Positions 2,091 to 31,051 of a stretch of DNA of 64,000 nt are shown piece after piece. The notes beneath the pieces were generated by a model. The model was given only the letters and a program-made list of their open reading frames with translations, made no database searches and was not told the DNA's origin. Numbering within the stretch: position 1 is the stretch's first letter; each line of letters opens with the position of its first letter. The stretch is from Cyanidioschyzon merolae. Lineage: Eukaryota. The position numbers were made by a program, and so were the translations under genes. The stretch lies in the NCBI GenBank assembly GCA_000091205.1, contig AP006498.2. The stretch is one strand, 5' to 3'.

Positions 2091-2218
2091 ACTGATCATC
2101 CACAGGTTGCTCTGCTCATGCGATTGCACGTGAGGATGCATCGTGGTTCCGCGTGATGCCCCACGCTACAGAGTCATCCGGGCGGGATGTGGGAGCTCGA
2201 AAGCACGTGATCGCTCCT

Positions 2219-2465
2219 GATTGGAAAGCATCTCATATATGCAGGGTACCAGTACGACCGGAAGTTTTCTTGTGCGTTCATAGCACTTCCAATTGGGAAG
2301 CATCTCATATATGCACGGTACCAGCAAGACAGGAAGTTTTCTTGTGCGTTCATAGCACTTCTGATTGCGAAGCATCTCATGTTTGCAGTGTACCAGTAAG
2401 ACAGGAAGTTTTCTTATGCTTCCATAGCACTCCTCATTGGGACGCATCTCACGTATGCACATGGT
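2219..2465. repeat. 72-bp tandem repeat (minisatellite), ~3.5 units
   Basis: The unit 'attgggaagcatctcatatatgcacggtaccagcaagacaggaagttttcttgtgcgttcatagcacttc..' recurs head-to-tail with a few substitutions per unit. The 135-aa ORF over it shows the matching periodic peptide repeat. Confidence 0.8.
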
Positions 2466-2650
2466 GCTCGAGCTGGCGGTTCCGAGCGATGCACCTCTTC
2501 GATAAGAGGCAGCGTAGGCTTGCTCAGACTCTGTTTGCGCCTTACCCTCAAGGAGCGTAGACTGGATTCGCTTGCCAGTGGTGCTTCCGAACTCTATGTA
2601 AATCGGAATTCAGAGTGCGGTGTCGGCCTAATTACCGCCTAAATGCATGA

Positions 2651-3905
2651 GTGATTGGAATGGAACATGGAACTGGTCGCCATGTTCCTAAATTTCGGAT
2701 TTTTCCGAACTTTGTTTCGTGGCACTGCCACCGCATTCGGAGTGCAGCAATAAGGACTTTTGGATTCATGCATAGTTTTCAGGTTTTCGGTCATTTTTTG
2801 GAATGGTTCCTTTGACGCTGTGCTGCTGAATTTCGTTAAGATACGGTCCTCAGGTGGATTCGCGACGTCCTCGAACAACGGTTCGAAGAATGGCCGGTTT
2901 TATCATCCCATTCAGGCGTGCAAGAATGCACGCTTCTCTTGTCCTCAGGCACAGCATGCGCAAAATACATATTCTTCTTTTTTTGATCCATCCGTTTGAC
3001 GGTTTCGCGTAGGCGCCGCACTTCGCACTGGTAGGTGCTCAAGGCAAAATCTTGACGTCTTCGCTTGAGGACTGGTTCGCGAGCTCATACCGAAAGTTCA
3101 CTGAACTTGGTACGTCAAGTAACGGATTTTGCTGGAAATGCAAATCCTCCTTTCTTGAAGGCAATCGGCGGAACGGGACGCAACAGCAGTTAGGTGTCGC
3201 CCTCGGGATATGCTCGCTGAACGCTCCCCTTCCTCTTTTGTTCGTGTGGCAAAGGGTTATGTGCTCGGATATGAGCCCTGACAAAGAACGCTTTCAGTGG
3301 AGCGCGCGTCACAGCTTTACATGAACGAGGCGTAGACGGATCGAAGCTTCTCGAATTGTCCTCCGACTTTGGGTTTTGTATTCAATACTTGTTTCATCAT
3401 GAGCAACGTCGCGTTCCACAGATCCTTTTTCGGATAGAACGGCGTACCGAGGAGTGTGCAGTGGACAACCTACTCACCGAGGGACTTACCCTGAAGAGGC
3501 TCGTAATCGTCCTGTACGGTATTGGGCACGGAAACGAAGGAAGGCATCAAAGGGCGCGCATTGAACCCGTCAAGGGTATATAACGGGCAATGAAGAGAGC
3601 GCTCTCGCGCTCAAGGGCAGCGCCCGAAGGACGAGTAGGATTAGCAAGAGGTGTACTGGTCCCATTGGAACACCTAACAGCAGTCAACTGCCACCGCTAC
3701 GAAGCCGGCTTTCAGGCTTTATGCACAGATGATGAAAATGGCAAGTCAAGCGTAGCTCGCAATTTCCACCTGCACATGAAATGCATAGACAAGTTCCCGA
3801 AGCGGTAAAACCGGGACATGCACACTGCCATCAGCATCCTTCGACTGATAATAACAGAGCTGGGAGACAAGAGAGATCGGTGTATTTAGGGCCGGAGACA
3901 CAATA
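2651..3905 (+). mobile_element. Family-A compact TnpB/Fanzor-like element, copy A1 (degenerate)
   Basis: It begins with the shared terminal motif 'ATTGGAATGGAACATGGAACTG'. 3300-3900 is homologous to 11680-12245 and 54500-55035 at the nucleotide level. The C-terminal coding remnant is '...LHMKCIDKFPKR' followed by 'RDMHTAISILRLIITEL', a CxxC-like motif plus RuvC-III 'D..AI.IL', broken by stops and frameshifts. Confidence 0.5.
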
Positions 3906-10997: not shown

Positions 10998-12250
10998 ATT
11001 AGAATGGAATACTGAACTGCATGCTCGATTCCTGCCTTGCGGATTCATTCCCGAACTTTTGTCATGTATACAGCTTCGATATCTGTAGTCCATGAAAGAG
11101 CTCTTTCGGATGCGAATGCGTCTTCGGACTCGCAATCGTCCATTTCGGAGTGACTCCATCGGCGCTGTGCTGCTCGAACTCAAAAAGTCACCGAAATCAA
11201 GACGATTCTCGACGCAGCAGAACGACGGTTCGTAAAATAACTGGTATCGTTATCCGACGCGCACGAACAAGCCTCCACTCTTGTCTGTTCCCTAGGTGTA
11301 GCATGCTCAGATCACGCAAGCTCCTAGTTTGCCGATCTTTCTGTTTTCAGGCAAATCGTAGAGACGGCAGTTGGCGCCGCAGGGATGGCGATCAGGAAAC
11401 TCAACGTTGTCACTTGACGGCTTGTTCACAAGATGGTGCCGAAAGCTCACTACACTTTTCATGTCTAATAATTGATTCCGTTCGAGCGACACATCCCGCT
11501 CTCTTCATGCCTATCGACGAGACTGAACTCGACAGCAGCCGCAGCAGCCGCAGCATGCTTCTGACGAGGTATGATCCCAGAGGCGTTCGTGTCTTCTGCT
11601 TCCATGGAAAAGCTTCTTGGACTCGGACGTCGATCATCGCAGCGACCGCTTCCATTTGCGAGCGGATCACCGGTTTGCACGAAGGGAGCGTAGACGGATC
11701 GAAATAGCTCGACTTGTCCCCGAGCCCGTATTTTCCTTCCGGTACTTGTTTCACCTTGGACAACACCGCGTTCCCCAAATCGTCTAAAGAATGGAGCAGC
11801 ATGCGCTTGTGCGTGCAAGGGACGGAGCACTCGCCGGCGTATTGTCCAGAACGGGCCCGTGATCGTTGGGTACGGCACCGGGTACGGAAACGGAGTAGCG
11901 CATGCTGGGCGATGCTTCTCCACTCGGAAAGGGCTTGTGCCAAGCGAGGCATTGTTCATTTATGCGCCAGGGGGCAGCGATCAGAGGAGGCATTGCGGGC
12001 GTATTGGAACACCTGGCCACAGCCAAGCGTCACCGCTGCGAATGGCGCACCCATTCTGTCTACGAAGACGGTGGAACTGGCAAGCGAAGCGCAGGTCGCA
12101 GCTTGAACCTGTTCGTCAAGTGCGCCAACAAGTACCGGAAGCGGGTGCATTGGGACGTCAAATCTGCCATCAACATCCTTCGGCAGCTGATAACGGAGCT
12201 GGAGCGACACGAGAGACCGGCATATTTCAAGCCGGATGCGCCATAGAGGA
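10998..12250 (+). mobile_element. Family-A TnpB/Fanzor-like element, copy A2 (degenerate), forming the outer end of the left palindrome arm
   Basis: It starts with the terminal motif 'ATTAGAATGGAATACTGAACTG'. The C-terminal peptide '...GKRSAGRSLNLFVKCANKYRKRVHWDVKSAINILRQLITELE' matches the TnpB zinc-finger plus RuvC-III pattern (FxCxxC..H.D.NAAINI). The reading frame is broken upstream, switching between frames 0, 1 and 2. Confidence 0.55.
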
Positions 12251-12637
12251 ACAAAGAGCAGTCGTAGATACCGCGGGCAAAGGCTGGTGTCGTAGGTGAG
12301 AACTGGATGAGACCCAGTATAATGATTACATATGCCCGAGTTTGTTAAGTGGAACGTTTCAATTTATTCTGAAATGGACGTAGGGCATCGATGTCCTTCA
12401 TCAAGCACCTTGTGCAGCACAGAAAATGAACCAGAATTGTTCGCTTGTGTGTCGAGGCGGCAAACTCCTCCGCACAATATCCCCGGCCGAAATGCTCTCA
12501 CACGGGCTCAGAGACATCTCTCTGGCATTGACATCCGATGCTCCAGGCTAGCTCGTACTAGGTGGCGCACTCTTCTAATACGAGACAGCAGACATGCACG
12601 TGTGTTGCACCGAGCGACAACGCGCCGGCGACGTCCT

Positions 12638-14014
12638 TCAGTAGCCCAGGTACCTCACTGGGGGTTTCTTCTTCCGACGTGTGCCGTCTGCGAAGCCGTC
12701 CCGACGATCATCGGTTTCATCGCTATCACCGCGTAGGTCGTGCACAAACCCCCGGAGGCTGGCCATCACTTTGTGGGCTTGGCGTCGCAGTTCAGCAGCG
12801 CGAAGCTGCTCGAATGCATCGTAGGTTCGCGAGCCGCTCGTTCCGACATCCCGCGGTCTACGCCGCAAGTGCTGAAACTTTTGCCATCCAGGAACCGCCT
12901 CATACCGGTGATCGCGCATAATTGGAAAGCAGTTGAAACCCTCCTCGCCGGGAAGTGGCTCCTCCGCAATAGACTCAATGGTGGGCAGTTTGATGCAGTG
13001 GTCATCCACCATCGTGGCAAAATCTACGCGTTGACTCGACAAATAATCGTCAAAGTCCAGGCTGTCAGGCGCAATGCGAAATACATTGGCAAGCTCGTCT
13101 GCGACATGCAGCCAGCCAATGTAGATGAGAAAAACAGAAAGCACGTAAATAATGTCCAGCCAGCGATAGTTTCCAATATCGATGCTGCTGGACGTTGCGC
13201 TCAATAAATTCAGATTTCCCGCGAGCAGTATGACACAAATCACGTAGATGCGCACTGTTGCGTTCACGAGCTGGCGGTACATCAGCGGAACTGGAACCCA
13301 CATGGGCACATATAAATAACCGAAATATCCGCGCACGAGCGCAAGCTGCTGCACAAGCTGAAGATGAACGAATTCCGTGATGCCGTAGCGGTGGTTCTGA
13401 TCACGCAGGCGAGAAAGCAAGTGCCCAGCCCACATGACTGGCATCGTCCACTGGGCTCTGTCTACATCATTCTCCAGCCGGTATCGCTCCTCAGGTGTGA
13501 TCAAGCCAATACGTTCCATGGCCTCAGTGGTGCGGTACGCATGATCACCGCCAAGAAAAACATCGCGAAGCACCATAGCGAACGGAATGCAGATCCACCG
13601 GACAATGAGTTGCTTCAACCGTGCAGCGCCGATAGGGTCGTTATCATCATACACGAAGGACGTCATCTCGAGAGCAATATTGTAGGCAGCGATTTGGCCA
13701 GTGCCACACATGACAACACGAACACTCCACCAACGGGAATAGATTGTGCTAGTATAAAACCCCAGCATAAAGGTAAGAATTGGCGAAAGGACACTGACAA
13801 GTGCTGCGAGAGTATTCAGGAAGGGTATCGGCCATTCTGCAACGTAGAGCTTGAGCGCTATCACGAGCACTGCGGCACCGATCCAGGAAAGAAGTTCAAA
13901 GAGCAACCGCTGGACCAATGAGCCGTACCAATGAAAGAAGACTCTAGTCCATGAAAGGGGAAATACATAGTCTTTCCCGAACGTGGCTATGGGATCCTTG
14001 TAGTAGATTGTCAT
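12638..14014 (-). CDS. Bestrophin-family (RFP-TM) anion channel, copy 1 (identical to copy 2)
   Basis: 'ILTFMLGFYTSTIYSRWW', 'PVPLMYRQLV' and 'YIGWLHVADELANVFRIAPDSLDFD' align with the bestrophin TM2 (VLGFYV..RWW) and C-terminal ([23 protein letters not shown]) signatures. It is predicted to have several TM helices. Confidence 0.85.
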   Translation of the reverse strand: MTIYYKDPIATFGKDYVFPLSWTRVFFHWYGSLVQRLLFELLSWIGAAVLVIALKLYVAEWPIPFLNTLAALVSVLSPILTFMLGFYTSTIYSRWWSVRVVMCGTGQIAAYNIALEMTSFVYDDNDPIGAARLKQLIVRWICIPFAMVLRDVFLGGDHAYRTTEAMERIGLITPEERYRLENDVDRAQWTMPVMWAGHLLSRLRDQNHRYGITEFVHLQLVQQLALVRGYFGYLYVPMWVPVPLMYRQLVNATVRIYVICVILLAGNLNLLSATSSSIDIGNYRWLDIIYVLSVFLIYIGWLHVADELANVFRIAPDSLDFDDYLSSQRVDFATMVDDHCIKLPTIESIAEEPLPGEEGFNCFPIMRDHRYEAVPGWQKFQHLRRRPRDVGTSGSRTYDAFEQLRAAELRRQAHKVMASLRGFVHDLRGDSDETDDRRDGFADGTRRKKKPPVRYLGY

Positions 14015-14476
14015 CTCTGGGAAACAAACGTGCCGCGTACCAGGTAAAGGCGTCGCTGGCCTGTGGAAACCTCTTCGGGCTCTTCAAATACGCACAAACA
14101 CCGCTTGGGTGCTTGCGCAACTCTGATTTGTGCTTTGGTCGTCGAACGGGGACTCGCTCGCTCTTGAACAGCAGCCGCACTCGAGCCGTGTGCACGTTTC
14201 CAACCTACGAAAACGCGAACTCCCGCTTCCAGCAGGTATCCTGATCTTGTTGCCTCTACGGTCAGGACGCGCAGTAAGCCTGGTTCACGTACGTACCGAC
14301 TATTTACCGGTGATAGTCGTCCGATCGCAGTGAGACCTACGGCGTCCCGTGTGTTTCGCAATCTGTCTGCAATAGCCGTTAGACAACCTGTTTATGGTTG
14401 CTTTGTGGCTCTGTGGCAAACACACACGCCGACACCGAACACTTTCCAAAAGTCGAACGACGCCAGCGCTGTACAG

Positions 14477-15033
14477 TACTGGCGAGAAGCCCGCCCTAGA
14501 CAAGAAGTCTCCAGCTGACGTACGGACGCCTCCCAGTCTTCATGGACCGGGCACCTACTACTGCTTCCAATTGTTTCTCATATAGTTCCACTTTGGGAGG
14601 TTGCCCCCACAAAATTCTCTCTTGTCAGCGCTGGAGGTCTGCTTTCCAGCACCGCACATCTCCTGATATTGATGGCGGCATTAAAGTCTCGGTTCACAAA
14701 CTCCATACGTTTCTTGCCATCACTGGTTGTACTCACTAGTGCGAGTAGCCCTCGAACTTTCGCCCTTGTTTCCATTTGCTCCTCCGTCAGCGGTCCGTAC
14801 TTTTCTATGTCTTCAGGGCTCCGCTGGCACTTTTCCATCCCGACCCTCTTAAGTACGCACCCCAGTTCATGGTGTGTATAGGACGTTCGGAACCCATCTA
14901 TCGGTATCGTAACAAAACGCTGTGCGCACTCCCTGTATGTTCTTGTCGACGGAGCTGGTACACATTCTTTTTGGGTCTTCCATCGCCCTGCTCCGTATGC
15001 CACTACGAGCCTCTGACGCTCGTCCTCCTTCAT
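14477..15033 (-). pseudogene. Partial inverted copy of the 3' half of the central TnpB/Fanzor-like gene, including its conserved 3' tail
   Basis: The 181-aa ORF 14578..15123(-) shares '...KEDERQRLVVAYGAGRWK...EFVNRDFNAAINIRRCAVLESRP...SQSGTI' exactly with the 233-aa ORF at 15272..15973(+). The copy stops at the arm boundary. Confidence 0.7.
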
Positions 15034-15099
15034 AATCCATTTCCGTCTTCGATATTGTACGTGACGAAGCATGAAGATGAGAAGGAGGCGGGTCCTGCG

Positions 15100-16080
15100 A
15101 CGCAGAAAGTGCATGAGAACCACTTTGTCGTTGGCGCGGGCCCTGGGAACACGAATATCATGACCATCACAACACGCCGTTGTGGGGATGATGGCGTCGA
15201 CGGCAACTTACGTCAAAAAACACACGCGTGTTTTAAAGCGCTAAAGAACGAGATATTACCGAGAGTTCGGTGTGATGAATGCAAAGAAGAAAAGTGGAAC
15301 GTGGAGTGCTGGAGTGAAAAAGCACCTGGAAGCGATCAGCCAGGTGACGAGCCGAGAAGCGGACTTTAAAGCTTTTCGGAAATTCATGGAAGTTCGTGTT
15401 GCTCACTGGGATGCGCTGTGGGAGGGGCATACAAAGCCCCGGTGGGCTCGTCTGCGAATGAATCTATACTGTGGCAAGCAGCGCGCATTCGCGAACTTTT
15501 TCAACCAGCTGAGCGCCGTGAAGGAGGACGAGCGTCAGAGGCTCGTAGTGGCATACGGAGCAGGGCGATGGAAGACCCAAAAAGAATGTGTACCAGCTCC
15601 GTCGACAAGAACATACAGGGAGTGCGCACAGCGTTTTGTTACGATACCGATAGATGGGTTCCGAACGTCCTATACACACCATGAACTGGGGTGCGTACTT
15701 AAGAGGGTCGGGATGGAAAAGTGCCAGCGGAGCCCTGAAGACATAGAAAAGTACGGACCGCTGACGGAGGAGCAAATGGAAACAAGGGCGAAAGTTCGAG
15801 GGCTACTCGCACTAGTGAGTACAACCAGTGATGGCAAGAAACGTATGGAGTTTGTGAACCGAGACTTTAATGCCGCCATCAATATCAGGAGATGTGCGGT
15901 GCTGGAAAGCAGACCTCCAGCGCTGACAAGAGAGAATTTTGTGGGGGCAACCTCCCAAAGTGGAACTATATGAGAAACAATTGGAAGCAGTAGTAGGTGC
16001 CCGGTCCATGAAGACTGGGAGGCGTCCGTACGTCAGCTGGAGACTTCTTGTCTAGGGCGGGCTTCTCGCCAGTACTGTAC
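15100..16080 (+). pseudogene. TnpB/Fanzor-like RuvC nuclease pseudogene (family B, long copy) at the palindrome centre: RuvC-I-like block, bridge, RuvC-II-like, degenerate zinc finger, RuvC-III, plus a conserved 3' non-coding tail
   Basis: In the frame of ORF 14776..15369 the sequence 'HFVVGAGPGNTNIMTIT' corresponds to TnpB RuvC-I 'aGvDvGikdfaivT' with Asp replaced by Gly. After a frameshift, the 15272 frame reads 'KKKSG..SREADFKAFRKF' (compare TnpB 'RRKKGS...NKRQDFLHKL'). 'VAHWDALWEGH' sits at the RuvC-II position with E replaced by D. 'IPIDGFRTSYTHHELGC' is a degenerate 'TSxxCxxCG' motif. 'EFVNRDFNAAINIRR' is an intact RuvC-III. Confidence 0.6.
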
Positions 16081-16536
16081 AGCGCTGGCGTCGTTCGACT
16101 TTTGGAAAGTGTTCGGTGTCGGCGTGTGTGTTTGCCACAGAGCCACAAAGCAACCATAAACAGGTTGTCTAACGGCTATTGCAGACAGATTGCGAAACAC
16201 ACGGGACGCCGTAGGTCTCACTGCGATCGGACGACTATCACCGGTAAATAGTCGGTACGTACGTGAACCAGGCTTACTGCGCGTCCTGACCGTAGAGGCA
16301 ACAAGATCAGGATACCTGCTGGAAGCGGGAGTTCGCGTTTTCGTAGGTTGGAAACGTGCACACGGCTCGAGTGCGGCTGCTGTTCAAGAGCGAGCGAGTC
16401 CCCGTTCGACGACCAAAGCACAAATCAGAGTTGCGCAAGCACCCAAGCGGTGTTTGTGCGTATTTGAAGAGCCCGAAGAGGTTTCCACAGGCCAGCGACG
16501 CCTTTACCTGGTACGCGGCACGTTTGTTTCCCAGAG

Positions 16537-17913
16537 ATGACAATCTACTACAAGGATCCCATAGCCACGTTCGGGAAAGACTATGTATTTCCCCTTTCAT
16601 GGACTAGAGTCTTCTTTCATTGGTACGGCTCATTGGTCCAGCGGTTGCTCTTTGAACTTCTTTCCTGGATCGGTGCCGCAGTGCTCGTGATAGCGCTCAA
16701 GCTCTACGTTGCAGAATGGCCGATACCCTTCCTGAATACTCTCGCAGCACTTGTCAGTGTCCTTTCGCCAATTCTTACCTTTATGCTGGGGTTTTATACT
16801 AGCACAATCTATTCCCGTTGGTGGAGTGTTCGTGTTGTCATGTGTGGCACTGGCCAAATCGCTGCCTACAATATTGCTCTCGAGATGACGTCCTTCGTGT
16901 ATGATGATAACGACCCTATCGGCGCTGCACGGTTGAAGCAACTCATTGTCCGGTGGATCTGCATTCCGTTCGCTATGGTGCTTCGCGATGTTTTTCTTGG
17001 CGGTGATCATGCGTACCGCACCACTGAGGCCATGGAACGTATTGGCTTGATCACACCTGAGGAGCGATACCGGCTGGAGAATGATGTAGACAGAGCCCAG
17101 TGGACGATGCCAGTCATGTGGGCTGGGCACTTGCTTTCTCGCCTGCGTGATCAGAACCACCGCTACGGCATCACGGAATTCGTTCATCTTCAGCTTGTGC
17201 AGCAGCTTGCGCTCGTGCGCGGATATTTCGGTTATTTATATGTGCCCATGTGGGTTCCAGTTCCGCTGATGTACCGCCAGCTCGTGAACGCAACAGTGCG
17301 CATCTACGTGATTTGTGTCATACTGCTCGCGGGAAATCTGAATTTATTGAGCGCAACGTCCAGCAGCATCGATATTGGAAACTATCGCTGGCTGGACATT
17401 ATTTACGTGCTTTCTGTTTTTCTCATCTACATTGGCTGGCTGCATGTCGCAGACGAGCTTGCCAATGTATTTCGCATTGCGCCTGACAGCCTGGACTTTG
17501 ACGATTATTTGTCGAGTCAACGCGTAGATTTTGCCACGATGGTGGATGACCACTGCATCAAACTGCCCACCATTGAGTCTATTGCGGAGGAGCCACTTCC
17601 CGGCGAGGAGGGTTTCAACTGCTTTCCAATTATGCGCGATCACCGGTATGAGGCGGTTCCTGGATGGCAAAAGTTTCAGCACTTGCGGCGTAGACCGCGG
17701 GATGTCGGAACGAGCGGCTCGCGAACCTACGATGCATTCGAGCAGCTTCGCGCTGCTGAACTGCGACGCCAAGCCCACAAAGTGATGGCCAGCCTCCGGG
17801 GGTTTGTGCACGACCTACGCGGTGATAGCGATGAAACCGATGATCGTCGGGACGGCTTCGCAGACGGCACACGTCGGAAGAAGAAACCCCCAGTGAGGTA
17901 CCTGGGCTACTGA
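16537..17913 (+). CDS. Bestrophin-family anion channel, copy 2 (identical to copy 1)
   Basis: 458 aa, 100% identical to 12638..14014(-), with the same bestrophin motifs. Confidence 0.85.
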   Translation: MTIYYKDPIATFGKDYVFPLSWTRVFFHWYGSLVQRLLFELLSWIGAAVLVIALKLYVAEWPIPFLNTLAALVSVLSPILTFMLGFYTSTIYSRWWSVRVVMCGTGQIAAYNIALEMTSFVYDDNDPIGAARLKQLIVRWICIPFAMVLRDVFLGGDHAYRTTEAMERIGLITPEERYRLENDVDRAQWTMPVMWAGHLLSRLRDQNHRYGITEFVHLQLVQQLALVRGYFGYLYVPMWVPVPLMYRQLVNATVRIYVICVILLAGNLNLLSATSSSIDIGNYRWLDIIYVLSVFLIYIGWLHVADELANVFRIAPDSLDFDDYLSSQRVDFATMVDDHCIKLPTIESIAEEPLPGEEGFNCFPIMRDHRYEAVPGWQKFQHLRRRPRDVGTSGSRTYDAFEQLRAAELRRQAHKVMASLRGFVHDLRGDSDETDDRRDGFADGTRRKKKPPVRYLGY

Positions 17914-18306
17914 AGGACGTCGCCGGCGCGTTGTCGCTCGGTGCAACACACGTGCATGTCTGCTGTCTCGTATTAGAAGAGTGCGCCACCTAGTACGAGC
18001 TAGCCTGGAGCATCGGATGTCAATGCCAGAGAGATGTCTCTGAGCCCGTGTGAGAGCATTTCGGCCGGGGATATTGTGCGGAGGAGTTTGCCGCCTCGAC
18101 ACACAAGCGAACAATTCTGGTTCATTTTCTGTGCTGCACAAGGTGCTTGATGAAGGACATCGATGCCCTACGTCCATTTCAGAATAAATTGAAACGTTCC
18201 ACTTAACAAACTCGGGCATATGTAATCATTATACTGGGTCTCATCCAGTTCTCACCTACGACACCAGCCTTTGCCCGCGGTATCTACGACTGCTCTTTGT
18301 TCCTCT

Positions 18307-19559
18307 ATGGCGCATCCGGCTTGAAATATGCCGGTCTCTCGTGTCGCTCCAGCTCCGTTATCAGCTGCCGAAGGATGTTGATGGCAGATTTGACGTCCCA
18401 ATGCACCCGCTTCCGGTACTTGTTGGCGCACTTGACGAACAGGTTCAAGCTGCGACCTGCGCTTCGCTTGCCAGTTCCACCGTCTTCGTAGACAGAATGG
18501 GTGCGCCATTCGCAGCGGTGACGCTTGGCTGTGGCCAGGTGTTCCAATACGCCCGCAATGCCTCCTCTGATCGCTGCCCCCTGGCGCATAAATGAACAAT
18601 GCCTCGCTTGGCACAAGCCCTTTCCGAGTGGAGAAGCATCGCCCAGCATGCGCTACTCCGTTTCCGTACCCGGTGCCGTACCCAACGATCACGGGCCCGT
18701 TCTGGACAATACGCCGGCGAGTGCTCCGTCCCTTGCACGCACAAGCGCATGCTGCTCCATTCTTTAGACGATTTGGGGAACGCGGTGTTGTCCAAGGTGA
18801 AACAAGTACCGGAAGGAAAATACGGGCTCGGGGACAAGTCGAGCTATTTCGATCCGTCTACGCTCCCTTCGTGCAAACCGGTGATCCGCTCGCAAATGGA
18901 AGCGGTCGCTGCGATGATCGACGTCCGAGTCCAAGAAGCTTTTCCATGGAAGCAGAAGACACGAACGCCTCTGGGATCATACCTCGTCAGAAGCATGCTG
19001 CTGCTGCGGCTGCTGCGGCTGCTGTCGAGTTCAGTCTCGTCGATAGGCATGAAGAGAGCGGGATGTGTCGCTCGAACGGAATCAATTATTAGACATGAAA
19101 AGTGTAGTGAGCTTTCGGCACCATCTTGTGAACAAGCCGTCAAGTGACAACGTTGAGTTTCCTGATCGCCATCCCTGCGGCGCCAACTGCCGTCTCTACG
19201 ATTTGCCTGAAAACAGAAAGATCGGCAAACTAGGAGCTTGCGTGATCTGAGCATGCTACACCTAGGGAACAGACAAGAGTGGAGGCTTGTTCGTGCGCGT
19301 CGGATAACGATACCAGTTATTTTACGAACCGTCGTTCTGCTGCGTCGAGAATCGTCTTGATTTCGGTGACTTTTTGAGTTCGAGCAGCACAGCGCCGATG
19401 GAGTCACTCCGAAATGGACGATTGCGAGTCCGAAGACGCATTCGCATCCGAAAGAGCTCTTTCATGGACTACAGATATCGAAGCTGTATACATGACAAAA
19501 GTTCGGGAATGAATCCGCAAGGCAGGAATCGAGCATGCAGTTCAGTATTCCATTCTAAT
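18307..19559 (-). mobile_element. Family-A TnpB/Fanzor-like element, copy A2' (mirror of A2) at the outer end of the right arm
   Basis: Reverse-complement duplicate of 10998-12250. ORF 18305..18649(-) encodes the same '...FVKCANKYRKRVHWDVKSAINILRQL' peptide. Confidence 0.55.
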
Positions 19560-20372
19560 CTGATAGCCCCGTCGGCGACGAGGATCTCAGAGTCGGATTG
19601 CACCTGCACTGATTCCGGGGATCTTGGTGTGCATGATGGAAATCTTTGGAAAATGTTCTGCGAATGATGGAACACGGGAAGTGTTGGACGCTTCCACCGT
19701 GCGCCCAGCTCTTTCTGATGCCTCCGAAAATGGAATTTTCGGAGCGCTCTCGGACACTAGTCTTGTGTGCGGTGCTTTGCACTCGATGGACGCAAAGAGT
19801 ACCGAAGCGAATCCTCACGAAGTTACGGATTCGCGCTCATTCAAGCAATCCCGGAGACATACCATAGAGTTGACATCGACGTTGCGCTGCCTCGGACCTT
19901 ACCAGGGATTGGTCACAGCACAAACGTCGGCGTCGCTCATGCTGCAGCGCCGGCGCTCTAGGCTCACTGTGGGCCCCCCTATCAAGCACTTGGCCCCGGA
20001 GGATTGCACGAAGCGACGGTTATCTCCAAAGAAAAGCGCGCGTGGTTGTTGTTGGGGCTTGAAGATCTGTTGCCGCGGAATGGACGCTCTCTCTGATGCC
20101 GTCAACCCTCGCGCAGTCAAGGATTCCTTCGAGTGTGTAAACGAATCTACACACCCCTGTGGGAAATCGCTCGTGCGAGAGAAGATGTACTTTTAGGGAC
20201 AATAATGTATGTCTTGTACGTCCGTGCGCGTGGCCTCGACAGCAGCGCAGCACCTGCACCTTGCAGTCGTTTCGAGCGCGCAGCCAGTGCTTGTTGTAAA
20301 CGACCTAGTCTAGGGTTGCTGGGGCGGTCCTCGCGTCAGGCTGTCCGCCCGACACACCTTGCAATAGGCACC

Positions 20373-21815
20373 ATGCCGATTATGTACATGGATCCCGTGG
20401 CGAACCTGGGGAAGGACTACGTTCTTCCCCTTTCCTGGGTGCGCATATTTCTCTACTGGCACGGAAGCCTCTTGCAGCGCTTGCTGTTCGAAGTGTGCAT
20501 CCTGTTCGGTCTCGCTGCTTTTATTATTGCCATGAAGCTTTACGTTGCAGAGTGGCCACGCTTCCTTCTAGAAGTCTTTGCAAATATTGTCAACATTCTT
20601 TCAGGCGTGTTGACGCTCCTGCTGGGGTTCTATGCCAGCACCATCTACAGCCGCTGGTGGTACACGCGCACGAACATGTTCGGGACCGCGCAAGGTGGAG
20701 TGTACAACTGCGGTTTCATGTTGAACGCGCTCGTCTACGACGATGAGAATCCGGAACTTTGCGCCCGCTTTAAGCAGCGGTTTCTCCGTTGGATGAACCT
20801 CGCTTTCGGAATCATGCTCATGGACGTCACCTCTGGTGGATCGCATCTCTTCGAGTCCTTTGATAGCATGGAACGCATCGGTTTGGTGACCCCCGAGGAG
20901 CGCTATCGCCTGGAGCATGACGTGGAGCGTGTGCGCTTCACGCTGCCCATTATGTGGGCGGGTCATATGCTTACGCGCCTCCGGGATAATAATCACCAGT
21001 TTCACATTACGGATCGGGTACACATGCAGCTGTCGATCGAGTTGGCTTACTTGCGGCAGGGTCTCGGTGGATGCTATCTCATGAAGAACACACCGGTGCC
21101 GCTTCTCTATGTGCAGTTCGTGGAGGTTGCTGTCCGAATGTACGTTATTAGCATGATTCTGCTTGTAGGTGATTTGAACTTGCTGTCTGGAACCTTTCAA
21201 GAACGCGGCAACGATAGATGGGTCGATCTCGTCTACATCGCAGCGCTGTTTTTCATCTACGTCGGCTGGCTTCATGTAGCGGAGGAACTTGCAAACCCCT
21301 TCCGAATAGCCCCGGATGGACTCGATTTGGATGACCTTCTCTCCGGACAACGATGCGATGTGATGACCATGTCCGACTCGACGCGTCAACGTTTACCGAA
21401 ACCCGAGGTGATTCAGGAAGCGCCGCTTCCAGGAGAGCAGGGCTGGTATTTGCCGATTATAACCCGAGATCACAGCTACGAGCCTGTTCCCTACTGGTAC
21501 AGTTTTTGGTACAATCTCATCCGTCGCCGAAAGTGCAGCACCGCGCCTTCACCTCATTCCATTATTTGGGGATTCTATCCCGAGAAACAGCCGCTGCTTA
21601 CCGAGCCAGAAAAGAAACATGCAGCATCAAATCCATCGGCGTGGTCCAACGTAGTGCATGTACACCCGGGAGCTTCACAACATTGGAACGTGAGTCACCG
21701 CAACGACGGGCCAGCGCCCATGGCCTCACATTGCCCAAGCGGGCTGGTCAGTTCGGGTTTCGGCGGACTTGGTGTGGATAGCAGCAGTGCTGACGGCGGC
21801 GGCAGTGTATTATGA
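20373..21815 (+). CDS. Bestrophin-family anion channel, divergent paralog 3
   Basis: 'MPIMYMDPVANLGKDYVLPLSW', 'LLGFYASTIYSRWW' and 'YVGWLHVAEELANPFRIAPDGLDLDD' match the bestrophin motifs. The six-frame ORF starts at 20133, but homology to copies 1, 2 and 4 begins at the Met at 20373. It has a long Pro/Ser/Gly-rich C-terminal tail. Confidence 0.8.
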   Translation: MPIMYMDPVANLGKDYVLPLSWVRIFLYWHGSLLQRLLFEVCILFGLAAFIIAMKLYVAEWPRFLLEVFANIVNILSGVLTLLLGFYASTIYSRWWYTRTNMFGTAQGGVYNCGFMLNALVYDDENPELCARFKQRFLRWMNLAFGIMLMDVTSGGSHLFESFDSMERIGLVTPEERYRLEHDVERVRFTLPIMWAGHMLTRLRDNNHQFHITDRVHMQLSIELAYLRQGLGGCYLMKNTPVPLLYVQFVEVAVRMYVISMILLVGDLNLLSGTFQERGNDRWVDLVYIAALFFIYVGWLHVAEELANPFRIAPDGLDLDDLLSGQRCDVMTMSDSTRQRLPKPEVIQEAPLPGEQGWYLPIITRDHSYEPVPYWYSFWYNLIRRRKCSTAPSPHSIIWGFYPEKQPLLTEPEKKHAASNPSAWSNVVHVHPGASQHWNVSHRNDGPAPMASHCPSGLVSSGFGGLGVDSSSADGGGSVL

Positions 21816-22503
21816 ACATTGTCCGGAGCTTTGGCATGCTTCTAAAGATGGAAAGCAGCTGGACCGCGCAGGCGGGATGCATCTTCCTCGTGTTGAGCGC
21901 TTCGCGTGGAGGATTCCCAAAAGGAGAATTTTAGTGCTGCGCGAATAATATTCTGATGAAACGAGTTTGTGGATGCTGAGCGGCAAACATGTGCGCCATG
22001 CGCACCGACGATGACAATGACCAACGCTTTCAGAACGCCAAGTACGTGCCGAGTGACGTCATCTACCTAGCGAATGCCTGGCTTCTCAGAGCAGACAGCT
22101 GGCACACAGTAGCGAGGCGCCGAGGCTTCGCCGCATGCATCCGCCATGCCGCTGACGCTCCAAAGCCACCGATCTGACCCTGCCAGTGAAGATGCTGGTA
22201 CGATTTTATTGATTCATTTTGCCAGTCAATCTGTATGACATACGATCGTTTTCTTTCCGCAAAACGCGTAAAAGTTGTATACGCTTTTGACGTTACGTGG
22301 AACGAATCGGTGGGTGCATCTCGTGGCGATTCTGCTCAGTTGTCTTTGACTTTGTGACCTACGCTCGGCGCGATTCCAGCACTCTGGACAGGTACACCAC
22401 AAGCCTCGGTGAGATGCGGGCATCATTGCCATTAGAGGCGAATCTCTGTCGTCTGCGCTGGTTCGCCGAGGCTACGCTAGCAAGCCCTATCATTTGGTGC
22501 ATG

Positions 22504-23154
22504 TTATGAAGACTCCTTGGGTTCAAACTTCAAGGAGTAAGAGTTCATGCAGTAGCGAAGCCCGGTCGGCTTGGGACCATCAGGAAAAACGTGCCCCAGG
22601 TGCGCGTCGCAGACCGCACAAAGCACCTCCGTACGTATCATACCATGCGATAGATCCCGTCTCTCTTTGACAGCCTCTTTGCTCAGGGGAGCATAAAACG
22701 AGGGCCAGCCCGTGCCACTGTCGAACTTTGTTTCGCTGGAAAATAACGGCGTTCCACAGCAGACACACCGATATATCCCCGTGCGTTTTTCGTTCCAGTA
22801 CTCGCCGGTAAAAGGCCGCTCGGTGCCAGCTCGTCGCGCTACCTCGAACTGCATCGGCGTGAGACGTGCTTTCCAGTCTTCTTCAGTGAGAGCTCGCCAG
22901 TCTTTTACGTCCGCTGGGTTGCTCTGACTCATTTTCAGACGCGAGCTACCTTTCACAAGCTGGGTCAGCTGTCCACGCTGCAGAGACGCTCTCCAGAAAG
23001 CAACACCGAGGACGGTACGCTGCTGCTGCTGCTGCTGCTGCACGGTGTTGCCAGAGTACAGAACACGGCAACACTGCTTGCACTGGTACTGTAAACGTGC
23101 TTGCTGAACAAGTGGTGAAGTGAAAATACTAACGAACATCAAAACAGGTATCAC
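22504..23154 (-). CDS. msrB: Peptide methionine-(R)-sulfoxide reductase MsrB (SelR domain)
   Basis: 'RYCxNSxSLxF' C-terminal region, 'GTGWPSF' and '[10 protein letters not shown]' with two CxxC pairs (CVCCG, CAVCDAH). The N-terminal 74 aa carry a (CAG)n-encoded poly-Q run. An alternative start at Met75 (22932) would give a canonical ~143-aa MsrB. Confidence 0.85.
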
Positions 23155-23649
23155 TGCAACCGTCTAGCGAATCGTCTCCGAGAAACCAGAAATTAACAGT
23201 GATTTAAGAATCGGAGATGCAACGAAGAAAAGTTACGCAACAATATTCACTGTACACAGTTGTCCAGGATCGTCTACAGTGCATGTGCATGCACGCGGTT
23301 CCGAGATGACGCCTCGGCACGCAGCAATGCATGGCGTTTCGGGTTGCCTGAGTGGCGGCGCAATCAGCATCGCGGCAAGCGCCCGCGATAGGCGCAGTAT
23401 GCCGAGAACTCTTTGCCCGCAGACAAACAACTAATCTCTATGTCGAACGGAGGGACTGTTCTTGAGCTAGTGGAACGTTGAAGCGTCTGAAGTAATACGC
23501 AACTATGATGGAATTGAGCAGCATTGTGAAGTGCATTGGAGGTGTTCGTTCAAGTTTTCTTGTCATAGTTTTTCACCTAAATTGTGTTCCACTCCTCCGG
23601 TGCGTGTCATCAAATGCGTGTTCGCGGTTTATAGCGGATTCGTTCGAAG

Positions 23650-24150
23650 TAGGTTCATTTCCAAAAATAAAAATCTAAGGATCAGGTATCGACATGCAAG
23701 GCGGGGATCCAGGAGGACCCTCATCACTGGCTGCCTGAGTAAAAAACGAAACAAATCCTCTTCTCGCCGATCATCGAGCGAAGAAGAGCAAGTGACCAGG
23801 AAGAAAAAGGCGAAGAAGATGACGATGAGAGATCGGCGAGAAAATGTATTTGGTCAACGGAACGATGACGTCCCTTTGGTGGCAAAGAGGGCTCGCGTTC
23901 TGACAACTATTTTAAAGGTGAGCTCAACCAGAGGCAATAAACGCATAGAGTTCGTGAACCGAGACTTCAACGCCGCCATCAATATCATGAGATGCACGGT
24001 GCTGGAGACGAGACCCGAGGAGCTGAGGCGATCCAAGTTTGTGAGGCAGCCTCTCAGGCTCGTTCTGTGCATGAATAAACCTAAATCGATAGCAGGGTCG
24101 CGGTCGAACAGGGCAGGGACGCGTCTACGGGTGGGTATTCACGCACCCTG
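23650..24150 (+). mobile_element. Family-B short non-autonomous TnpB/Fanzor-derived repeat, copy B2
   Basis: It begins 'ccaaaaataaaaatctaaggat' like 1030. 23740-24140 aligns with 31610-31990 ('...tcatcgagcgaagaagagcaag...', '...cagcctctcaggctcg...'). It encodes 'KRIEFVNRDFNAAINIMRCTVLETRPEE' (RuvC-III) with no upstream RuvC-I or RuvC-II. Confidence 0.55.
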
Positions 24151-26272
24151 CTTGCTCGTGGGACTTTGTTTCTTTCATTGACGATAACAGTGACGATAAT
24201 CACGGACAGAATATCCACCTGTGTGCACTTTGTAAAGCTCCTGAAACCTAGGCCACAGTCGAGTAACGAAGCTCATTGTCTACCGTTCAGGGTAGATCAA
24301 GAGACAGACTTCGGGGTCGGCGTGGACCCGGGAGCTGCAGGATGTCACGCCCGATTTTTAACCTCTGAATGAGGAGGCCGGCGCCAAAGACCTACTCGGA
24401 AGGAAGCTGACCCTGTTCAAGCTTTCCAGGGCAGGGGATTATCGAGATTCGGGCATAACGTTCGCCAGCAGGGATACCAGCAAGTGGAACGACGGCGTCC
24501 GGGCCCGACTCTCGACGCTCTGGACACCGTATCGAGCAGACGGGGGCATGCTTTGCACGCTTGATTCATAGATCATATGAGCCTCAAAACGTCTCCTGCG
24601 GGCGGTCTTTGGCAGCAGTACACACGGGCGCGCGGGGTCGGAAACCGATTCGGTTGAACGGAGGCAGCCATCGTGTATGCGCCAACTTGTCAGATGTGTT
24701 CGAACGAGAAATGATCGACACGTCGCGCTGTTTCGCGGAAGCCTAAGGCGCTGGACGTGGTTTAACGCGCATGAATGCGCTCCTACTCTTCGACCAGAGC
24801 GTGCAACGAGTGCAGGAACCGATCCTCAACGATACCCCAGCCCTGAGTTCGGGACGGCGTGCACGCATCCCGAGCACAGGTGCATGCTGAAACTGGTAGC
24901 AAAGAAGAGACGGAAATAAAGTTGGATGCTCGAGCTGGTGTACGGTAAGCTGACTGTGTGTCAGATGGCGAGCGAGTCGCAAGTGCGACGCGTGCTACAA
25001 TCTGAGTCCACCGCCATCCATGAGAGAAAGCAACTTCTGCACCGATATCTCAAAGCCTTGAAAAGCGTACGGAAATGTCTCGTGCCTCCGAAGAGTTCGG
25101 TGGCTTTGTGTGGCGCGAGCTTTCGGGAATTATTTCGTATCCTATCCATGCATTGTGCTGAAACACAGAAGAGTATTTATAAAAAATCAGGGCCAGGAGC
25201 GAGGGGGCGGCCTTCGTTTCTCGCCCGGAGCAAGGCTCTGGTATGGTACGATTCAGCTACCGAACGACATTGGTGCACCGTACACATACATCGTCAATGA
25301 TTTTCCTCGGCAACTGATACACCATTATTTGAGACGACGAATATAGAACAGAGTCAAATTGATGGATCAAAGCAGGTGAGCGGGGGCATAGACCTTGCGT
25401 TTCCGCAGACGGATTCCGGATGATGCCGCTTGTGTGATTTTTTCGTTGACAAGTCGCCCGCAGGGGACACGAACCTCCAAGTTCCCACAGAGAGGACACT
25501 TTGAGGCCAGTGCTGGACCGCACGGCCTGCAAGACCTGTGTTCGCTCCATACCCCTGTAGTATCTCCTATGGACGTGCTTTCCACGACTTATTCTGTCCA
25601 AACGAGCGTTTGCCCACAAAGATCTGGTCCATCAAAGTTGAGTTCAAGGCACAAGCGCAAGTAAAGCCAATTTTGGGCCCTGTACAATATGCAGGTGGCC
25701 TTCACAGCATACGCTTCGTTCCTCGTTTACGACGCGGCGAACGAGTGCTTCCGCGGAGGCGACCACGCACACAACCCCTGAAACTGAGCAGCTACAAACT
25801 GCATTAGTGGACCTGGAAGACCTGTTTCTCCTGCTTTGTATTCGTCTCGTCATCGAGCCCAGCGTATTCAGTAAACTTCCGTGCAAGTCACGGTTTACGT
25901 GCAGGTTTTCTTCGTAGACTCCGCCTTGTCCTGGAGAGTTTACGCTCGATTACGAGCAGCCTCGTAGGTAAACTTCGAAACAATTCGCCATTTACGTGCA
26001 GATGCCTATCCAGATGCTGCGACGTCCTGCTGAAATCACTCTCGTAGACGTGCAGTTTCGTGCAGGCCGCCCCTAGTTCTGTTCGAACTCGCGCGTCCAG
26101 CAGCGAGCCTCGTTGCTGAGCGCTGCGCTCGGCACCGAATGCCTCTGCGGCTTGCACATGCTCGCTCAGAAGCGTTCGTGTTGCACTGGGGGGTTCATCG
26201 CAGCGTACGCCAAGTCACTGTGACCAGATCATAACGTTTCGGCTTCCGCTACGCGGCTTATACGGTGAGTTC

Positions 26273-28156
26273 GTGCGCCGGATGCAAGACTATGAAGCTC
26301 TGCGCGAGTTGCGCTGGTGCGGAGCGGAGCTACACCGCGTCGCCGGTGCCCAGCTGGTGTCTCAGAGCACTGCTCTCGAGCGCACCAGTACTCTTGTAAG
26401 AAGCCTGCTTGAAAAGAAGGACTTTATGGAGGAGAACTGGAAAGAGGTGCTGCATCTGCAATCACAGTGGTTCTGCTGTTTGCAGACCCTGGTGCAGCGC
26501 TCAGTACAAGCGGAAAAGCCAACGTCAAAGCCCAGCTGTGCGGTAGTCGGAGCGCTCGAAGCGTCACTGCAACGGATAGCGCCAGTGGTTGTTCGATTGG
26601 GCACGGAGCAGGATATGGCGCTCGTTTTCAGCATCGCAGGCGGTCTCTGTGCTTTAGAACTGCTGAGCTGGTCCCAGTGCTGGCACGTCCTCGTGCGTCA
26701 ACTTTTGGACAGCAGCATCGATGACGCAGCACGTTGGCAAACCGTCCTGGTGCAGGGGTGTGCCGCAGCGTTTTGCGACCTGCGTTTGCATACGCTCCAC
26801 GCAGTAGCGCACCTGCTACGTGAATCGAGTTCGGTATACTCGACGCCTGCACCCGGGGCTGCGCTTGACTTGGCGGCGCGTGCGGAGAATGCATGGCGGT
26901 TCGTTTTGAAGCCCATTGGGCGACTACTCACCAAGGATGTGGCAAAGCAGCACCAGCAGCTGCTCAGTGAGGTCTTGCGGCGAGTCACGACGCCATCGCA
27001 ACGCGGAGACCGGCAGCAGCGACTACTGAAAGCATCCCGAAAGGCATTCACGGATGCGATGCTGGCGCTGCTGTCGACCGGTGAACACGGAATCGATTTG
27101 TCTGCACCCGTCCTCCTCGATGTTTTCGGAGAGCTTGTAGACAACCTCCTGCCGAACCATTGTATCGCAGAGCCGCTCCGACTGGGTGACTTTCTCGCGG
27201 AGACTTTTCGCGAGGCGATTGCCGGTCGTTCTGTGTATGGGATCGCAGCACTGGAGCCGCTGCTGTTTCTCATGCGCCACGATGGCCTCGAGTACGAACA
27301 CATATATGAGCAAGTGTATTCCAAGCTGGACGTACACACGCTCCTGCGACTGAACGCATGTGAGTCGGCCACAAGGGGGCGAGTGCTGCGCGCTGTCACG
27401 CAGCTATTGACGTCTAGCCACCTTCCGCATGCACTCATCAGCGCCTATACGAAGCGCCTTGCCCGGATAGCGCTGCAGAGCTGGGATGCAACACTGACGC
27501 TGTGGGCGCTTCGCTTGACGCTCGAACTCGTGCATCGCCATACGAGTGCGCGTCTGCTGCTCGAGTCGTGGTTCAAGCGACAGCAACCCGACAGGGAGCC
27601 TGTCATCGAAAGCAGCTGCTCGGACTCGACACCACGTCGTCGGGATCAGAGCGAGGCCTCGTTTGAGGCATCAGGGACCGGTGTGGTGCGTTCGACTCCC
27701 ACGAAACGCCTTGCATATGGATTCGTGTTTTGGGAGCGATCCAGCGGTCAACGAGCCGGAGATGAGTGCGCTAGTTCGACGCCCGGGCTGACGAACGACC
27801 CGTTTTTGGCCGATGAGCCAGATCCGCGTCGCTCCAACGCCTCTGCGAGTTTCCTCTGGGAAGTGGGTATGCTCTCTGAGCACTTTGTTTCCAGTGTTCG
27901 ACAACTCGCCGCTTTGTTCGAGGACCCGGAAAAGGCGATCAGTCGGGCGGGTCCGCTGGACGCCTGGTGTGATGCCTCACTTCGGGACCTTATCGAGTTG
28001 GAGTTACGCCGCTCCCAACATTTGGTGCGGAACAAGCCGATCGCGTTTGAGGCACCCAGGGACGACGACATCGTCGGAGACTCTGGATCAAAGGTAGAAG
28101 CTCAATTTACAGCGCATGCTGCGAATGCAAAAGTCATATTTGGTGAATATTCATAG
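26273..28156 (+). CDS. Hypothetical protein (627 aa), leucine-rich alpha-helical; no family recognised by eye
   Basis: Long uninterrupted ORF with coding-like composition and GC3 bias, lying between bestrophin paralogs 3 and 4. Confidence 0.4.
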   Translation: MRRMQDYEALRELRWCGAELHRVAGAQLVSQSTALERTSTLVRSLLEKKDFMEENWKEVLHLQSQWFCCLQTLVQRSVQAEKPTSKPSCAVVGALEASLQRIAPVVVRLGTEQDMALVFSIAGGLCALELLSWSQCWHVLVRQLLDSSIDDAARWQTVLVQGCAAAFCDLRLHTLHAVAHLLRESSSVYSTPAPGAALDLAARAENAWRFVLKPIGRLLTKDVAKQHQQLLSEVLRRVTTPSQRGDRQQRLLKASRKAFTDAMLALLSTGEHGIDLSAPVLLDVFGELVDNLLPNHCIAEPLRLGDFLAETFREAIAGRSVYGIAALEPLLFLMRHDGLEYEHIYEQVYSKLDVHTLLRLNACESATRGRVLRAVTQLLTSSHLPHALISAYTKRLARIALQSWDATLTLWALRLTLELVHRHTSARLLLESWFKRQQPDREPVIESSCSDSTPRRRDQSEASFEASGTGVVRSTPTKRLAYGFVFWERSSGQRAGDECASSTPGLTNDPFLADEPDPRRSNASASFLWEVGMLSEHFVSSVRQLAALFEDPEKAISRAGPLDAWCDASLRDLIELELRRSQHLVRNKPIAFEAPRDDDIVGDSGSKVEAQFTAHAANAKVIFGEYS

Positions 28157-28892
28157 AGTGCGTCCTGGTGTCTTGTGTGGCGTCACACTTGCGGAAACGC
28201 AGCGTCACTGGCGTGCAGGCAGCAGCTGCGATGCTCTCGCGTTGACGAGATTTCCGTCGTTATGGTGAACGCTTTCGAGCGACATTCCTGGTACATTCCT
28301 GCTGCGTTCTGCTAGATGATTCGGCAGGAGCGCCATCAGGTCGTTCCAGACCAGTGCGCGAGGTAACAGCAGCTGCAGCAGGTCCAACGCCTGCGACGCG
28401 AAGACAACGCTGCGCTGGATGTCTCGATGGTATCATAGCACCGATCGCAGCGACACCGCTGAGATGGACTTGAAGCAGTGGCGTCCAAGCGAGCTCCTCG
28501 ATTCTACGCTTCTGTGGATCGTGCAGCTCGAGCGGGACGGGAACGTGACTGGAGCAAGACGTGGTTCAGTGCGCACTGCTTGAAGCCGACGTACACGCTC
28601 GTCGAGCTAGTGTCACCGCTCCGTCATCGTGAAACGAAAACGCCTGTTCGGATTCGGGATCAGCGCCACACACGCTCCGTTCTGACTTGTCGGTAATGCG
28701 TCCTGCGTTAGCACGCAGGGCGTATCTGTGCTCCGTATCGACATGTGCGGAGGCACGGGGGCGCTTCTTCGGTGCGGGATACCTGCGGAGCACCCACCGC
28801 ACGCAGGCGAGGAACGTTATCGAAGCCAGACCGTGCTGGTTGCGCTTGTTTGCGCGGATATTGTGCTTGGCCAGGCGATGCGCTTGACGAGT

Positions 28893-30275: not shown

Positions 30276-31051
30276 GGACGCAGTTTGTGGTCCGGCGCAC
30301 AAGGCAAGCCGCCACGCGTCCGCGCAGGCAACAACGTGCTCACGGGGAATACTGGCGTGTCGGTGCCGAGCCTGCGCGCGGCACTAGCGCCCCAGTCCAA
30401 TATGTCCATAAGATCTACTTGATTCACTAGATGTCAAGTTAAGGACAGGTATGAGACTGCTCCCAGGGGCACCCATCCGGATGCTACCGCTGATTAAGCG
30501 ACGCGTTCCGGTGTTCACGGGTGCATGGCTCGTCGAGCGGAACCCCTTTTCCCAAGGTCAGCGAATGCACTGCACAGCGCTTGGCACTTGCGCCTCGAGA
30601 CAGTTAGGCAGTTATCGGAGCGCTTGAGGCAACTTGGGGATCGCCAGCGGGGGCCAGCGTGCCACGACTGAACTTGGTGCGGCCGGCTGACTCGCCTATC
30701 GCCTCCGCCCACTGCCGGGTTCGGCATGGAGCCGAGGATGCTCGACCTTTCGCACTGCGCGGGTTCGAGATTTGTTTTATTCGGGTATTTGAACTGAAAT
30801 TTATTCCAGACCAGCTGATTCCACTCGAATGCTTTTCTGCAGTGTATGGCAGGAGATCCAAATCACGATGCAACGTACCGTATAGATCGTAGACGAATTG
30901 CATGCAGGATACATGTATGACTGAACAGCGCAGAGAAGAATGCGTTCGTACTTCATGTCAGTCATACGATGGTACCGTGATGGTTGAGGAACGCTGAAAG
31001 ATCTAAGTAGACGCGCTTCGCGCCAAAATCCGATATTTTTACAGACTGTTT

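Follow-up and report, generated by a model that had tools for sequence, protein, structure and literature searches.

Positions 15034-15973 of the window, by which we mean the whole 64,000-nucleotide stretch of DNA analysed, had been read from the letters as a TnpB/Fanzor-like gene with substitutions at RuvC catalytic positions, and two explanations had been offered for it: a decaying pseudogene, or the remnant of a domesticated, nuclease-dead RNA-guided protein whose gene was disrupted by the event that formed a palindrome. Which of the two does this locus hold? Our analysis makes it very likely that the segment is a dead, 5′-truncated copy of the element CMe-1A, that is, a decaying pseudogene, and this assessment includes the order of events proposed below. 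The peptides quoted in the original prediction are present, 'VVGAGPGNTNIMTIT' in one frame and 'KKKSG...SREADFKAFRKF', 'VAHWDALWEGH', 'TSYTHHELGC', and 'RDFNAAINI' in the ORF at 15272-15973. A neighbouring 458-aa bestrophin ORF is identical to BAM81823.1 and BAM81824.1, two adjacent proteins of Cyanidioschyzon merolae 10D in a 908,485-bp record. This identity marks the window as red-algal nuclear DNA, and both arms of the palindrome are present in the deposited assembly.

The homology to TnpB and Fanzor is real and is visible only by deep profile or fold comparison. Searching Pfam with the window ORFs and four family proteins returned nothing significant, the best match being Cas12f1-like_TNB (E 0.24) over 'NRDFNAAINIR'. 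No match was found in the PDB by phmmer with the repaired 339-aa sequence or with a 10-sequence profile, and a word-index homology search with the profile recovered close family members only. An exhaustive HMMER search yielded 3,100 representatives at E ≤ 1e-3 (50% clustering), and a profile of 50 diverse family members matched the Fanzor1 structures 9cf0 (Parasitella parasitica PpFz1, 7e-23), 8gkh (Spizellomyces punctatus SpuFz1, 9.5e-19), and 9cer (Guillardia theta GtFz1, 2.8e-14). AlphaFold with a shallow 30-sequence alignment gave a pLDDT of 49.5 and was rerun with a diverse alignment; the resulting model of P0133, an intact 752-aa relative, has a pLDDT of 81 and a pTM of 0.79. When this model was compared with the PDB using Foldseek, the top seven matches were all Fanzor1 (E 7e-17 to 5e-14), with SpuFz1 at E 7e-17, a target-normalised TM of up to 0.72, and Cas12 proteins far behind. 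The WED-REC-RuvC-NUC fold was tested on P0133; the window copy retains the RuvC/NUC half only. The N-terminal halves of family proteins carry the precomputed Pfam tag PF26935.1. Both the family profile, which matches 9cf0, 8gkh, and 9cer, and the P0133 fold, which matches that of SpuFz1, thus bear out the description of a TnpB/Fanzor-like gene. The profile alignment that had been suggested as a check gave a significant Fanzor1 match and also placed the RuvC-II residue elsewhere.

The family itself is already known. CMe-1A was described as a Fanzor1 family in C. merolae by Bao and Jurka (2013, Mob DNA 4:12; PMC3627910), with ~150 copies that are ~80% identical to a 3,169-bp consensus, lack terminal inverted repeats, and are in some cases intact (PMC3627910). 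It is a non-autonomous transposable element of ~3.2 kb whose single ORF encodes a Fanzor1 protein. The supplement of PMC3627910 supplied the consensus DNA and the CMe-1 protein (734 aa), and the copy in the window was delimited as follows.

15036..16055, plus strand: Fanzor1 ORF remnant of CMe-1A, by blastn and global alignment to the published consensus.
16056..16111, plus strand: 3′ untranslated end of the CMe-1A copy, by alignment of 77 family 3′ ends.

The remnant corresponds to consensus nt 2093-3110 and codons ~396-734 of 734; the first ~395 codons, which make up the WED/REC half, are absent. Its identity to the CMe-1A consensus is 85.3% at the nucleotide level and, computed after taking out two single-base insertions, 78.8% at the amino acid level (residues 396-734), while consensus nt 2093-3145 aligns to window 15036-16090 at 85.7%. 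The published CMe-1 protein and the window copy agree motif for motif. The 77 family 3′ ends cease to be conserved near 16111, where the element ends. Hundreds of sequences are related to the ORF at 65-84% identity, almost all of them in JGI metagenomes, and a metagenome scan confirmed 334 related stretches, 80 of which were kept. The family is multi-copy in a eukaryote, the transposable-element context of Fanzor1, and the copy under study is an ordinary transposable-element (TE) pseudogene.

To place the catalytic residues, we used SpuFz1, in which D383, E541, and D606 coordinate two Mg2+ and are named the catalytic triad (PMC10432273; PMC11423790). In P0133 numbering, our 50-sequence alignment shows no variation at D484 and E656 and at least 90% conservation at D725; these residues are D431, E603, and D672 of the CMe-1 consensus. 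The D431, E603, and D672 columns face chain residues 777, 935, and 1000 in the HMMER alignment to 8gkh, which we equated by spacing with SpuFz1 D383, E541, and D606. The copy then reads as follows.

15139..15141, plus strand: RuvC-I Asp (D431, 'GADPG') changed to Gly ('GAGPG', GAC to GGC), aligning with SpuFz1 D383.
15557..15559, plus strand: Gly at the canonical RuvC-II position ('VVAYGAG', consensus G570), an invariant Gly in the family.
15656..15658, plus strand: alternative RuvC-II Glu (E603, 'VDEFRT') changed to Gly ('IDGFRT', GAG to GGG), aligning with SpuFz1 E541.
15677..15694, plus strand: 'HHELGC' replacing the first zinc-finger CxxC, six residues past the catalytic Glu, a family-wide state.
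15863..15865, plus strand: retained RuvC-III Asp (D672, GAC, 'NRDFNAAINI'), aligning with SpuFz1 D606.

The Asp-to-Gly change that had been called at RuvC-I is confirmed by the GGC codon at 15139-15141 and its alignment to SpuFz1 D383, and the RuvC-III Asp at 15863-15865, aligned to SpuFz1 D606, is kept as had been stated. The RuvC-II lesion, in contrast, was misassigned. A Glu-to-Asp substitution had been placed at 'VAHWDALWEGH', a segment that lies in helices 559-580 of the P0133 model, ~45 residues upstream of the RuvC-II strand; the true change is Glu to Gly at the Fanzor alternative Glu (15656-15658), in the context 'IPIDGFRT'. In the P0133 model, beta-strand 618-623 ('RLVVAYG') forms the canonical RuvC-II strand, at the end of which stands the invariant Gly. 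In Fanzors, the canonical Glu is replaced by Gly or Pro, and a conserved downstream Glu, the mutation of which abolishes cleavage, is used (PMC10530073); PMC10711439 sets out the 'DPG' and 'Ealt' signatures. The Gly at 15557..15559 is the normal Fanzor state and no lesion. DPG with the catalytic Asp is present in the family consensus and lost in the window copy; the Gly at canonical RuvC-II and the alternative Glu are both found in the family, and the copy retains the Gly only; the RuvC-III 'RD' Asp of Fanzor1 is present in the copy. Because Fanzors relocate the catalytic Glu, an alignment by eye to ISDra2 TnpB misplaces RuvC-II, and claims that a Fanzor is 'nuclease-dead' need to be made in the DPG / vDE[FY]xT[ST] / RD frame.

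The first zinc-finger Cys pair had been listed as replaced. It is indeed absent, but not as a sign of decay, since the whole subfamily lacks the finger. Six residues separate the Glu from the first CxxC according to a rule given in PMC10711439, and among 50 diverse subfamily representatives a single Cys is conserved in this stretch ('RGLLWC'). The C4 zinc finger between RuvC-II and RuvC-III, a motif of Bao and Jurka, is absent in the copy and in the subfamily; the 2013 paper gives it as strictly conserved (PMC3627910). Judged from these alignments, the missing first Cys pair is a subfamily trait that marks a variant subgroup and no feature of decay. By motif pattern, Volvox VCa-1 and VCa-2 (Bao and Jurka) group with the finger-less Fanzor1 subgroup. 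We suggest tentatively, and with more doubt than confidence, that CMe-1-type proteins may form a large finger-less Fanzor1 subgroup and that, if they are active RNA-guided nucleases, the zinc finger would be dispensable in Fanzor1. The subfamily-wide absence of the finger is a testable structural variant of Fanzor1. If CMe-1-type proteins are active, the Cyanidiales copies would be a source of acid- and heat-adapted enzymes, and the window copy would still be a dead relic.

Directly before the RuvC-I strand, family proteins carry one to approximately five tandem units of ~24 aa ('TKHEEKKEADPATQKVQDNDFVVDA'). They occupy residues 384-470 of P0133, are also found in P0149, P0026, and P0116, and are represented by a single unit in the window (15060-15135). 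The units are predicted to be disordered, and each repeats the lead-in of the DPG motif.

The history of the copy can be read against two hot-spring metagenome contigs, L001 (JGI 3300027863) and L002 (JGI 3300002182), which carry the same insertion at 99.2-99.3% identity and have no palindrome. The frame of the window copy is interrupted at the following sites.

15215..15220, plus strand: A6 run with a +1 frameshift, window-specific (A5 in L001 and L002).
15242..15244, plus strand: premature TAA for consensus TCG (Ser465), common to L001 and L002.
15943..15947, plus strand: G run with a second +1 frameshift, common to L001 and L002.

The A6 run at 15215..15220 is the frameshift that had been noticed between the RuvC-I block and the rest of the gene. 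The TAA at 15242-15244, the +1 frameshift at 15943-15947, and the extent of the ORF to 16055 go beyond what had been noticed; the G-run frameshift makes a false stop at 15971-15973, and the original frame continues to 16055. In L001 and L002, the ORF runs upstream through the full WED/REC half for 412-453 more residues. As both contigs carry the N-terminal part missing in the window, the proposal that the gene was cut by the palindrome junction stands. Both also already have GAGPG, IDGFRT, the TAA, and the C-terminal frameshift, and the window-specific changes comprise the A-run frameshift and the truncation only. Because the other lesions are common to L001 and L002, the gene was dead before the inverted duplication took away its 5′ part.

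The lesions are those of one insertion and not of the family. At covered sites, family proteins keep the RuvC-I Asp in 106/125, the Glu in 132/152, and the RuvC-III Asp in 100/108 cases, and 32 of the 40 proteins that cover all three sites read D-E-D. Gly occurs at RuvC-I in 3/125 and at the Glu site in 4/152. Given a D-E-D family consensus and the rarity of Gly, D431G and E603G belong to a single insertion. The search for intact paralogs that had been recommended found intact D-E-D relatives, among them P0133, intact at 752 aa. At the 21% amino acid divergence of the copy from the consensus, the probability that at least two of the three catalytic residues are changed is ~0.12; the double catalytic loss is therefore not beyond chance, and the pattern needs no special explanation. 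The window and L002 differ at 7 of 1083 nt in the TE part and at 26 of 3441 nt in the rest of the arm, so that remnant and flanks have diverged from L002 at equal rates, and nothing points to extra constraint. The remnant is not expected to have a protein function because the N-terminal half and two catalytic carboxylates are missing and the frame is interrupted. The open 233-aa ORF at 15272-15973 could in principle give a C-terminal fragment without RuvC-I and the whole WED/REC half.

The truncation coincides with a near-perfect palindrome, which is laid out as follows.

10998..15032: left palindrome arm, joined to the ancestral outer flank according to L002.
14440..15032, minus strand: second, mirror-image copy of the remnant's 3′ part (consensus nt 2577-3169), within the left arm.
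15033..15518: palindrome spacer of 486 nt, of which 15036-15518 is CMe-1A consensus 2093-2576.
15519..19559: right palindrome arm, with its ancestral link to the spacer kept.

A (GCA)2 microsatellite indel near 19002-19016 is the sole difference between the arms, which are otherwise 100% identical over ~4 kb. The Fanzor1 remnant extends over the spacer and the beginning of the right arm. Consensus nt 2577-3145 aligns reversed to 15030-14461 in the left arm, and both the E603G codon and the retained RuvC-III Asp recur in the mirror-image copy. At the inner junction, the sequence is ...CCTCCTTCA / TAA / TCCATTTCC...; the spacer bases 15033-15035 ('TAA') match neither an arm nor the ancestral sequence, and no clear microhomology was found at the inner junction. 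L002 passes the outer arm boundary into the left flank of the window, from 10997 down to 10191, and by this continuity the left arm holds the ancestral outer junction and the right arm the ancestral spacer link. The right flank (19560-23500) gave no match in a blast comparison with all fetched loci, and the telomere repeat AATGGGGGG was not found in the window.

A complete bestrophin gene is doubled by the palindrome, at 12638-14014 (minus strand) and 16537-17913 (plus strand). The arms are near-identical to each other, yet ~0.7% from the orthologous metagenome contigs, which suggests that the event is very recent or that the arms have undergone gene conversion with each other. Around L002 5-975, the forward CMe-1A copy, which begins at consensus 740, meets the 5′ end of another CMe-1A copy that is oppositely oriented (consensus 1-956, 79% identity), the pair being nested or head-to-head. 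What looked like a second CMe-1A fragment, at the beginning of L002, was discarded because the match belonged to another contig, L003.

On the assumption that L001 and L002 preserve the ancestral state and did not arise by secondary resolution of a palindrome, we propose the following order of events. A CMe-1A copy would have inserted beside the bestrophin gene and then undergone neutral decay, in which two of the three catalytic carboxylates would have been lost by single A-to-G transitions (D431G and E603G) and the TAA stop and the +1 frameshift near the C-terminus would have been gained before the palindrome. An inverted duplication of ~4-4.5 kb would subsequently have been joined inside the element in the strain 10D lineage, with breakpoints at consensus ~2090 and ~2577, and the 5′ 1.2 kb of the ORF would have been swapped for the mirror image of its own 3′ end together with the bestrophin gene. 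One further +1 frameshift would have followed the inverted duplication. Comparison of the palindromic (10D) and non-palindromic haplotypes thus dates the inverted duplication that doubled the bestrophin gene to a time after the death of the Fanzor gene, and it locates both breakpoints with single-base precision.

It could be argued that the palindrome and the 5′ truncation are an assembly artefact and that the real 10D locus is like L002, with a full-length but dead CMe-1A. Perfect palindromes can come from chimeric clones or reads, and arms that are 100% identical over ~4 kb except for one microsatellite indel would suit such an origin. We nevertheless consider it unlikely, as the (GCA)2 difference suggests two separate physical copies of the arm and the deposited genome carries annotations for both bestrophin copies. 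Moreover, contig L003, which stems from an independent sample and is 99.4% identical, has its start precisely on the inner arm boundary (15032/15519). A real inverted repeat with a spacer causes an assembly graph to break, and the start point of L003 is circumstantial evidence that the palindrome is no artefact. The verdict of a pseudogene is the same whether the palindrome is real or artefactual.

A second possibility concerns RNA. By analogy with the characterised Fanzor1 homologues, an intact member would cut double-stranded DNA as an RNA-guided endonuclease; its N-terminal half would be WED/REC and its RuvC domain split, with an active site made up of the Asp in 'DPG', the relocated Glu in 'vDEFRT', and the Asp in 'RDxNAA'. 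The 3′ end of the element would be the expected source of a guide RNA, since this is where characterised Fanzors encode theirs, in overlap with the end of the ORF (PMC10530073). On the same analogy, a copy with a dead ORF might supply guide RNAs in trans to an intact CMe-1A Fanzor1 from its retained 3′ ends (14440-14500 and 16050-16111). The 3′ location of the guide RNA in known Fanzors (PMC10530073), a 3′ end in the copy that is complete to the family boundary, and the existence of intact D-E-D relatives are consistent with such a role. Against it, no conserved secondary structure was detected in the family 3′ ends: RNAalifold, applied to the last 70-220 nt at the 3′ end of 56-65 distinct copies, returned no convincing consensus structure, with about -0.4 kcal/mol and one 4-bp helix. 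We regard a role in trans as improbable.

The weakest alternative, a domesticated, nuclease-dead RNA-guided protein of the TldR/dCas12 type that was functional until the palindrome formed, can draw on the substitution of two of the three catalytic residues within RuvC motifs that are still recognisable and on a RuvC-III motif and most of a C-terminal half that are 79% identical to the consensus, but it is very hard to maintain, because the substitutions are not conserved (the consensus and 32/40 sampled proteins read D-E-D), a nonsense codon and a frameshift are already present in the L001 and L002 haplotypes, at least two of the three residues change ~12% of the time at the observed divergence, the copy diverges from L002 at the rate of its flanks, and it is one of ~150 TE copies (PMC3627910). 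A regulator would be expected to have an intact ORF and inactivating changes conserved in its orthologues; here, the ORF is broken in the window, in L001, and in L002. Of the two readings in the original prediction, the decaying pseudogene is thus the one upheld, as the stop, the frameshift, and both substitutions were already in L001 and L002, and the domesticated protein is the one set aside, as the consensus is D-E-D and the gene was already interrupted in those contigs. The copy itself is of little significance, being a routine TE pseudogene of a family published in 2013.

The surroundings of the CMe-1A copy are rich in related sequences. At least seven further Fanzor1 relics lie within the window, and none of those listed here is intact (1042-2035, 23565-24651, 31690-31974, 43785-44523, 46225-46569, and 51726-52545). 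Some of the relics are CMe-1A fragments with 70-82% nucleotide identity, and the one at 1288-1926 is a copy of the 5′ 634-bp module common to CMe-1A and TE-N2_CMe; others were seen at the protein level only, at 27-35% identity, and probably represent older families. Four bestrophin-family genes are clustered at 12638-30302, namely the two palindrome copies and diverged paralogues at 20133-21815 (plus strand) and 28893-30302 (minus strand), which points to repeated local duplication of this gene family. A direct repeat of at least 300 nt (42642-42941 and 50221-50520) is 99% identical with a spacing of 7,579 nt. The same set of ORFs recurs around it, at 42.7-43.4 kb and 50.3-51.0 kb, and an old Fanzor1-like relic follows each repeat copy; the repeat is probably a segmental duplication or a repeated element.

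Compared with known systems, the segment is closest to the CMe-1A consensus, with which it shares the organism, the motif order, and the 3′ end, at 85% nucleotide and 79% amino acid identity over consensus nt 2093-3169. It differs from this consensus in lacking the 5′ two-thirds of the element, in D431G and E603G, in one stop and two frameshifts, and in the doubling of its 3′ third in inverted orientation by the palindrome. With the solved Fanzor1 proteins (SpuFz1, 8gkh; PpFz1, 9cf0; GtFz1, 9cer), the CMe-1 family has in common the full-length fold, the DPG of RuvC-I, the Gly at canonical RuvC-II, the relocated catalytic Glu in the 'DE[FY].T[ST]' motif, and the 'NRD' of RuvC-III, although identity is only ~15%. 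Between RuvC-II and RuvC-III, the CMe-1 subfamily, unlike them, lacks a CCCC zinc finger; before RuvC-I, it carries a variable tandem-repeat insert. Prokaryotic TnpB (ISDra2, D191/E278/D361) resembles the family in its split RuvC, D...E...D order, 'RD.NAA.NI' RuvC-III, and link to transposons. TnpB itself, however, has its Glu on the canonical RuvC-II strand and usually a D-hydrophobic-G RuvC-I (PMC10711439), a signature that is absent from the CMe-1 family, which has DPG and a Gly at canonical RuvC-II. Nuclease-dead derivatives of the TldR and Cas12k type likewise have substituted RuvC catalytic residues, but they are intact, conserved ORFs under selection in which the inactivating changes are fixed, whereas the window holds a broken single TE copy.
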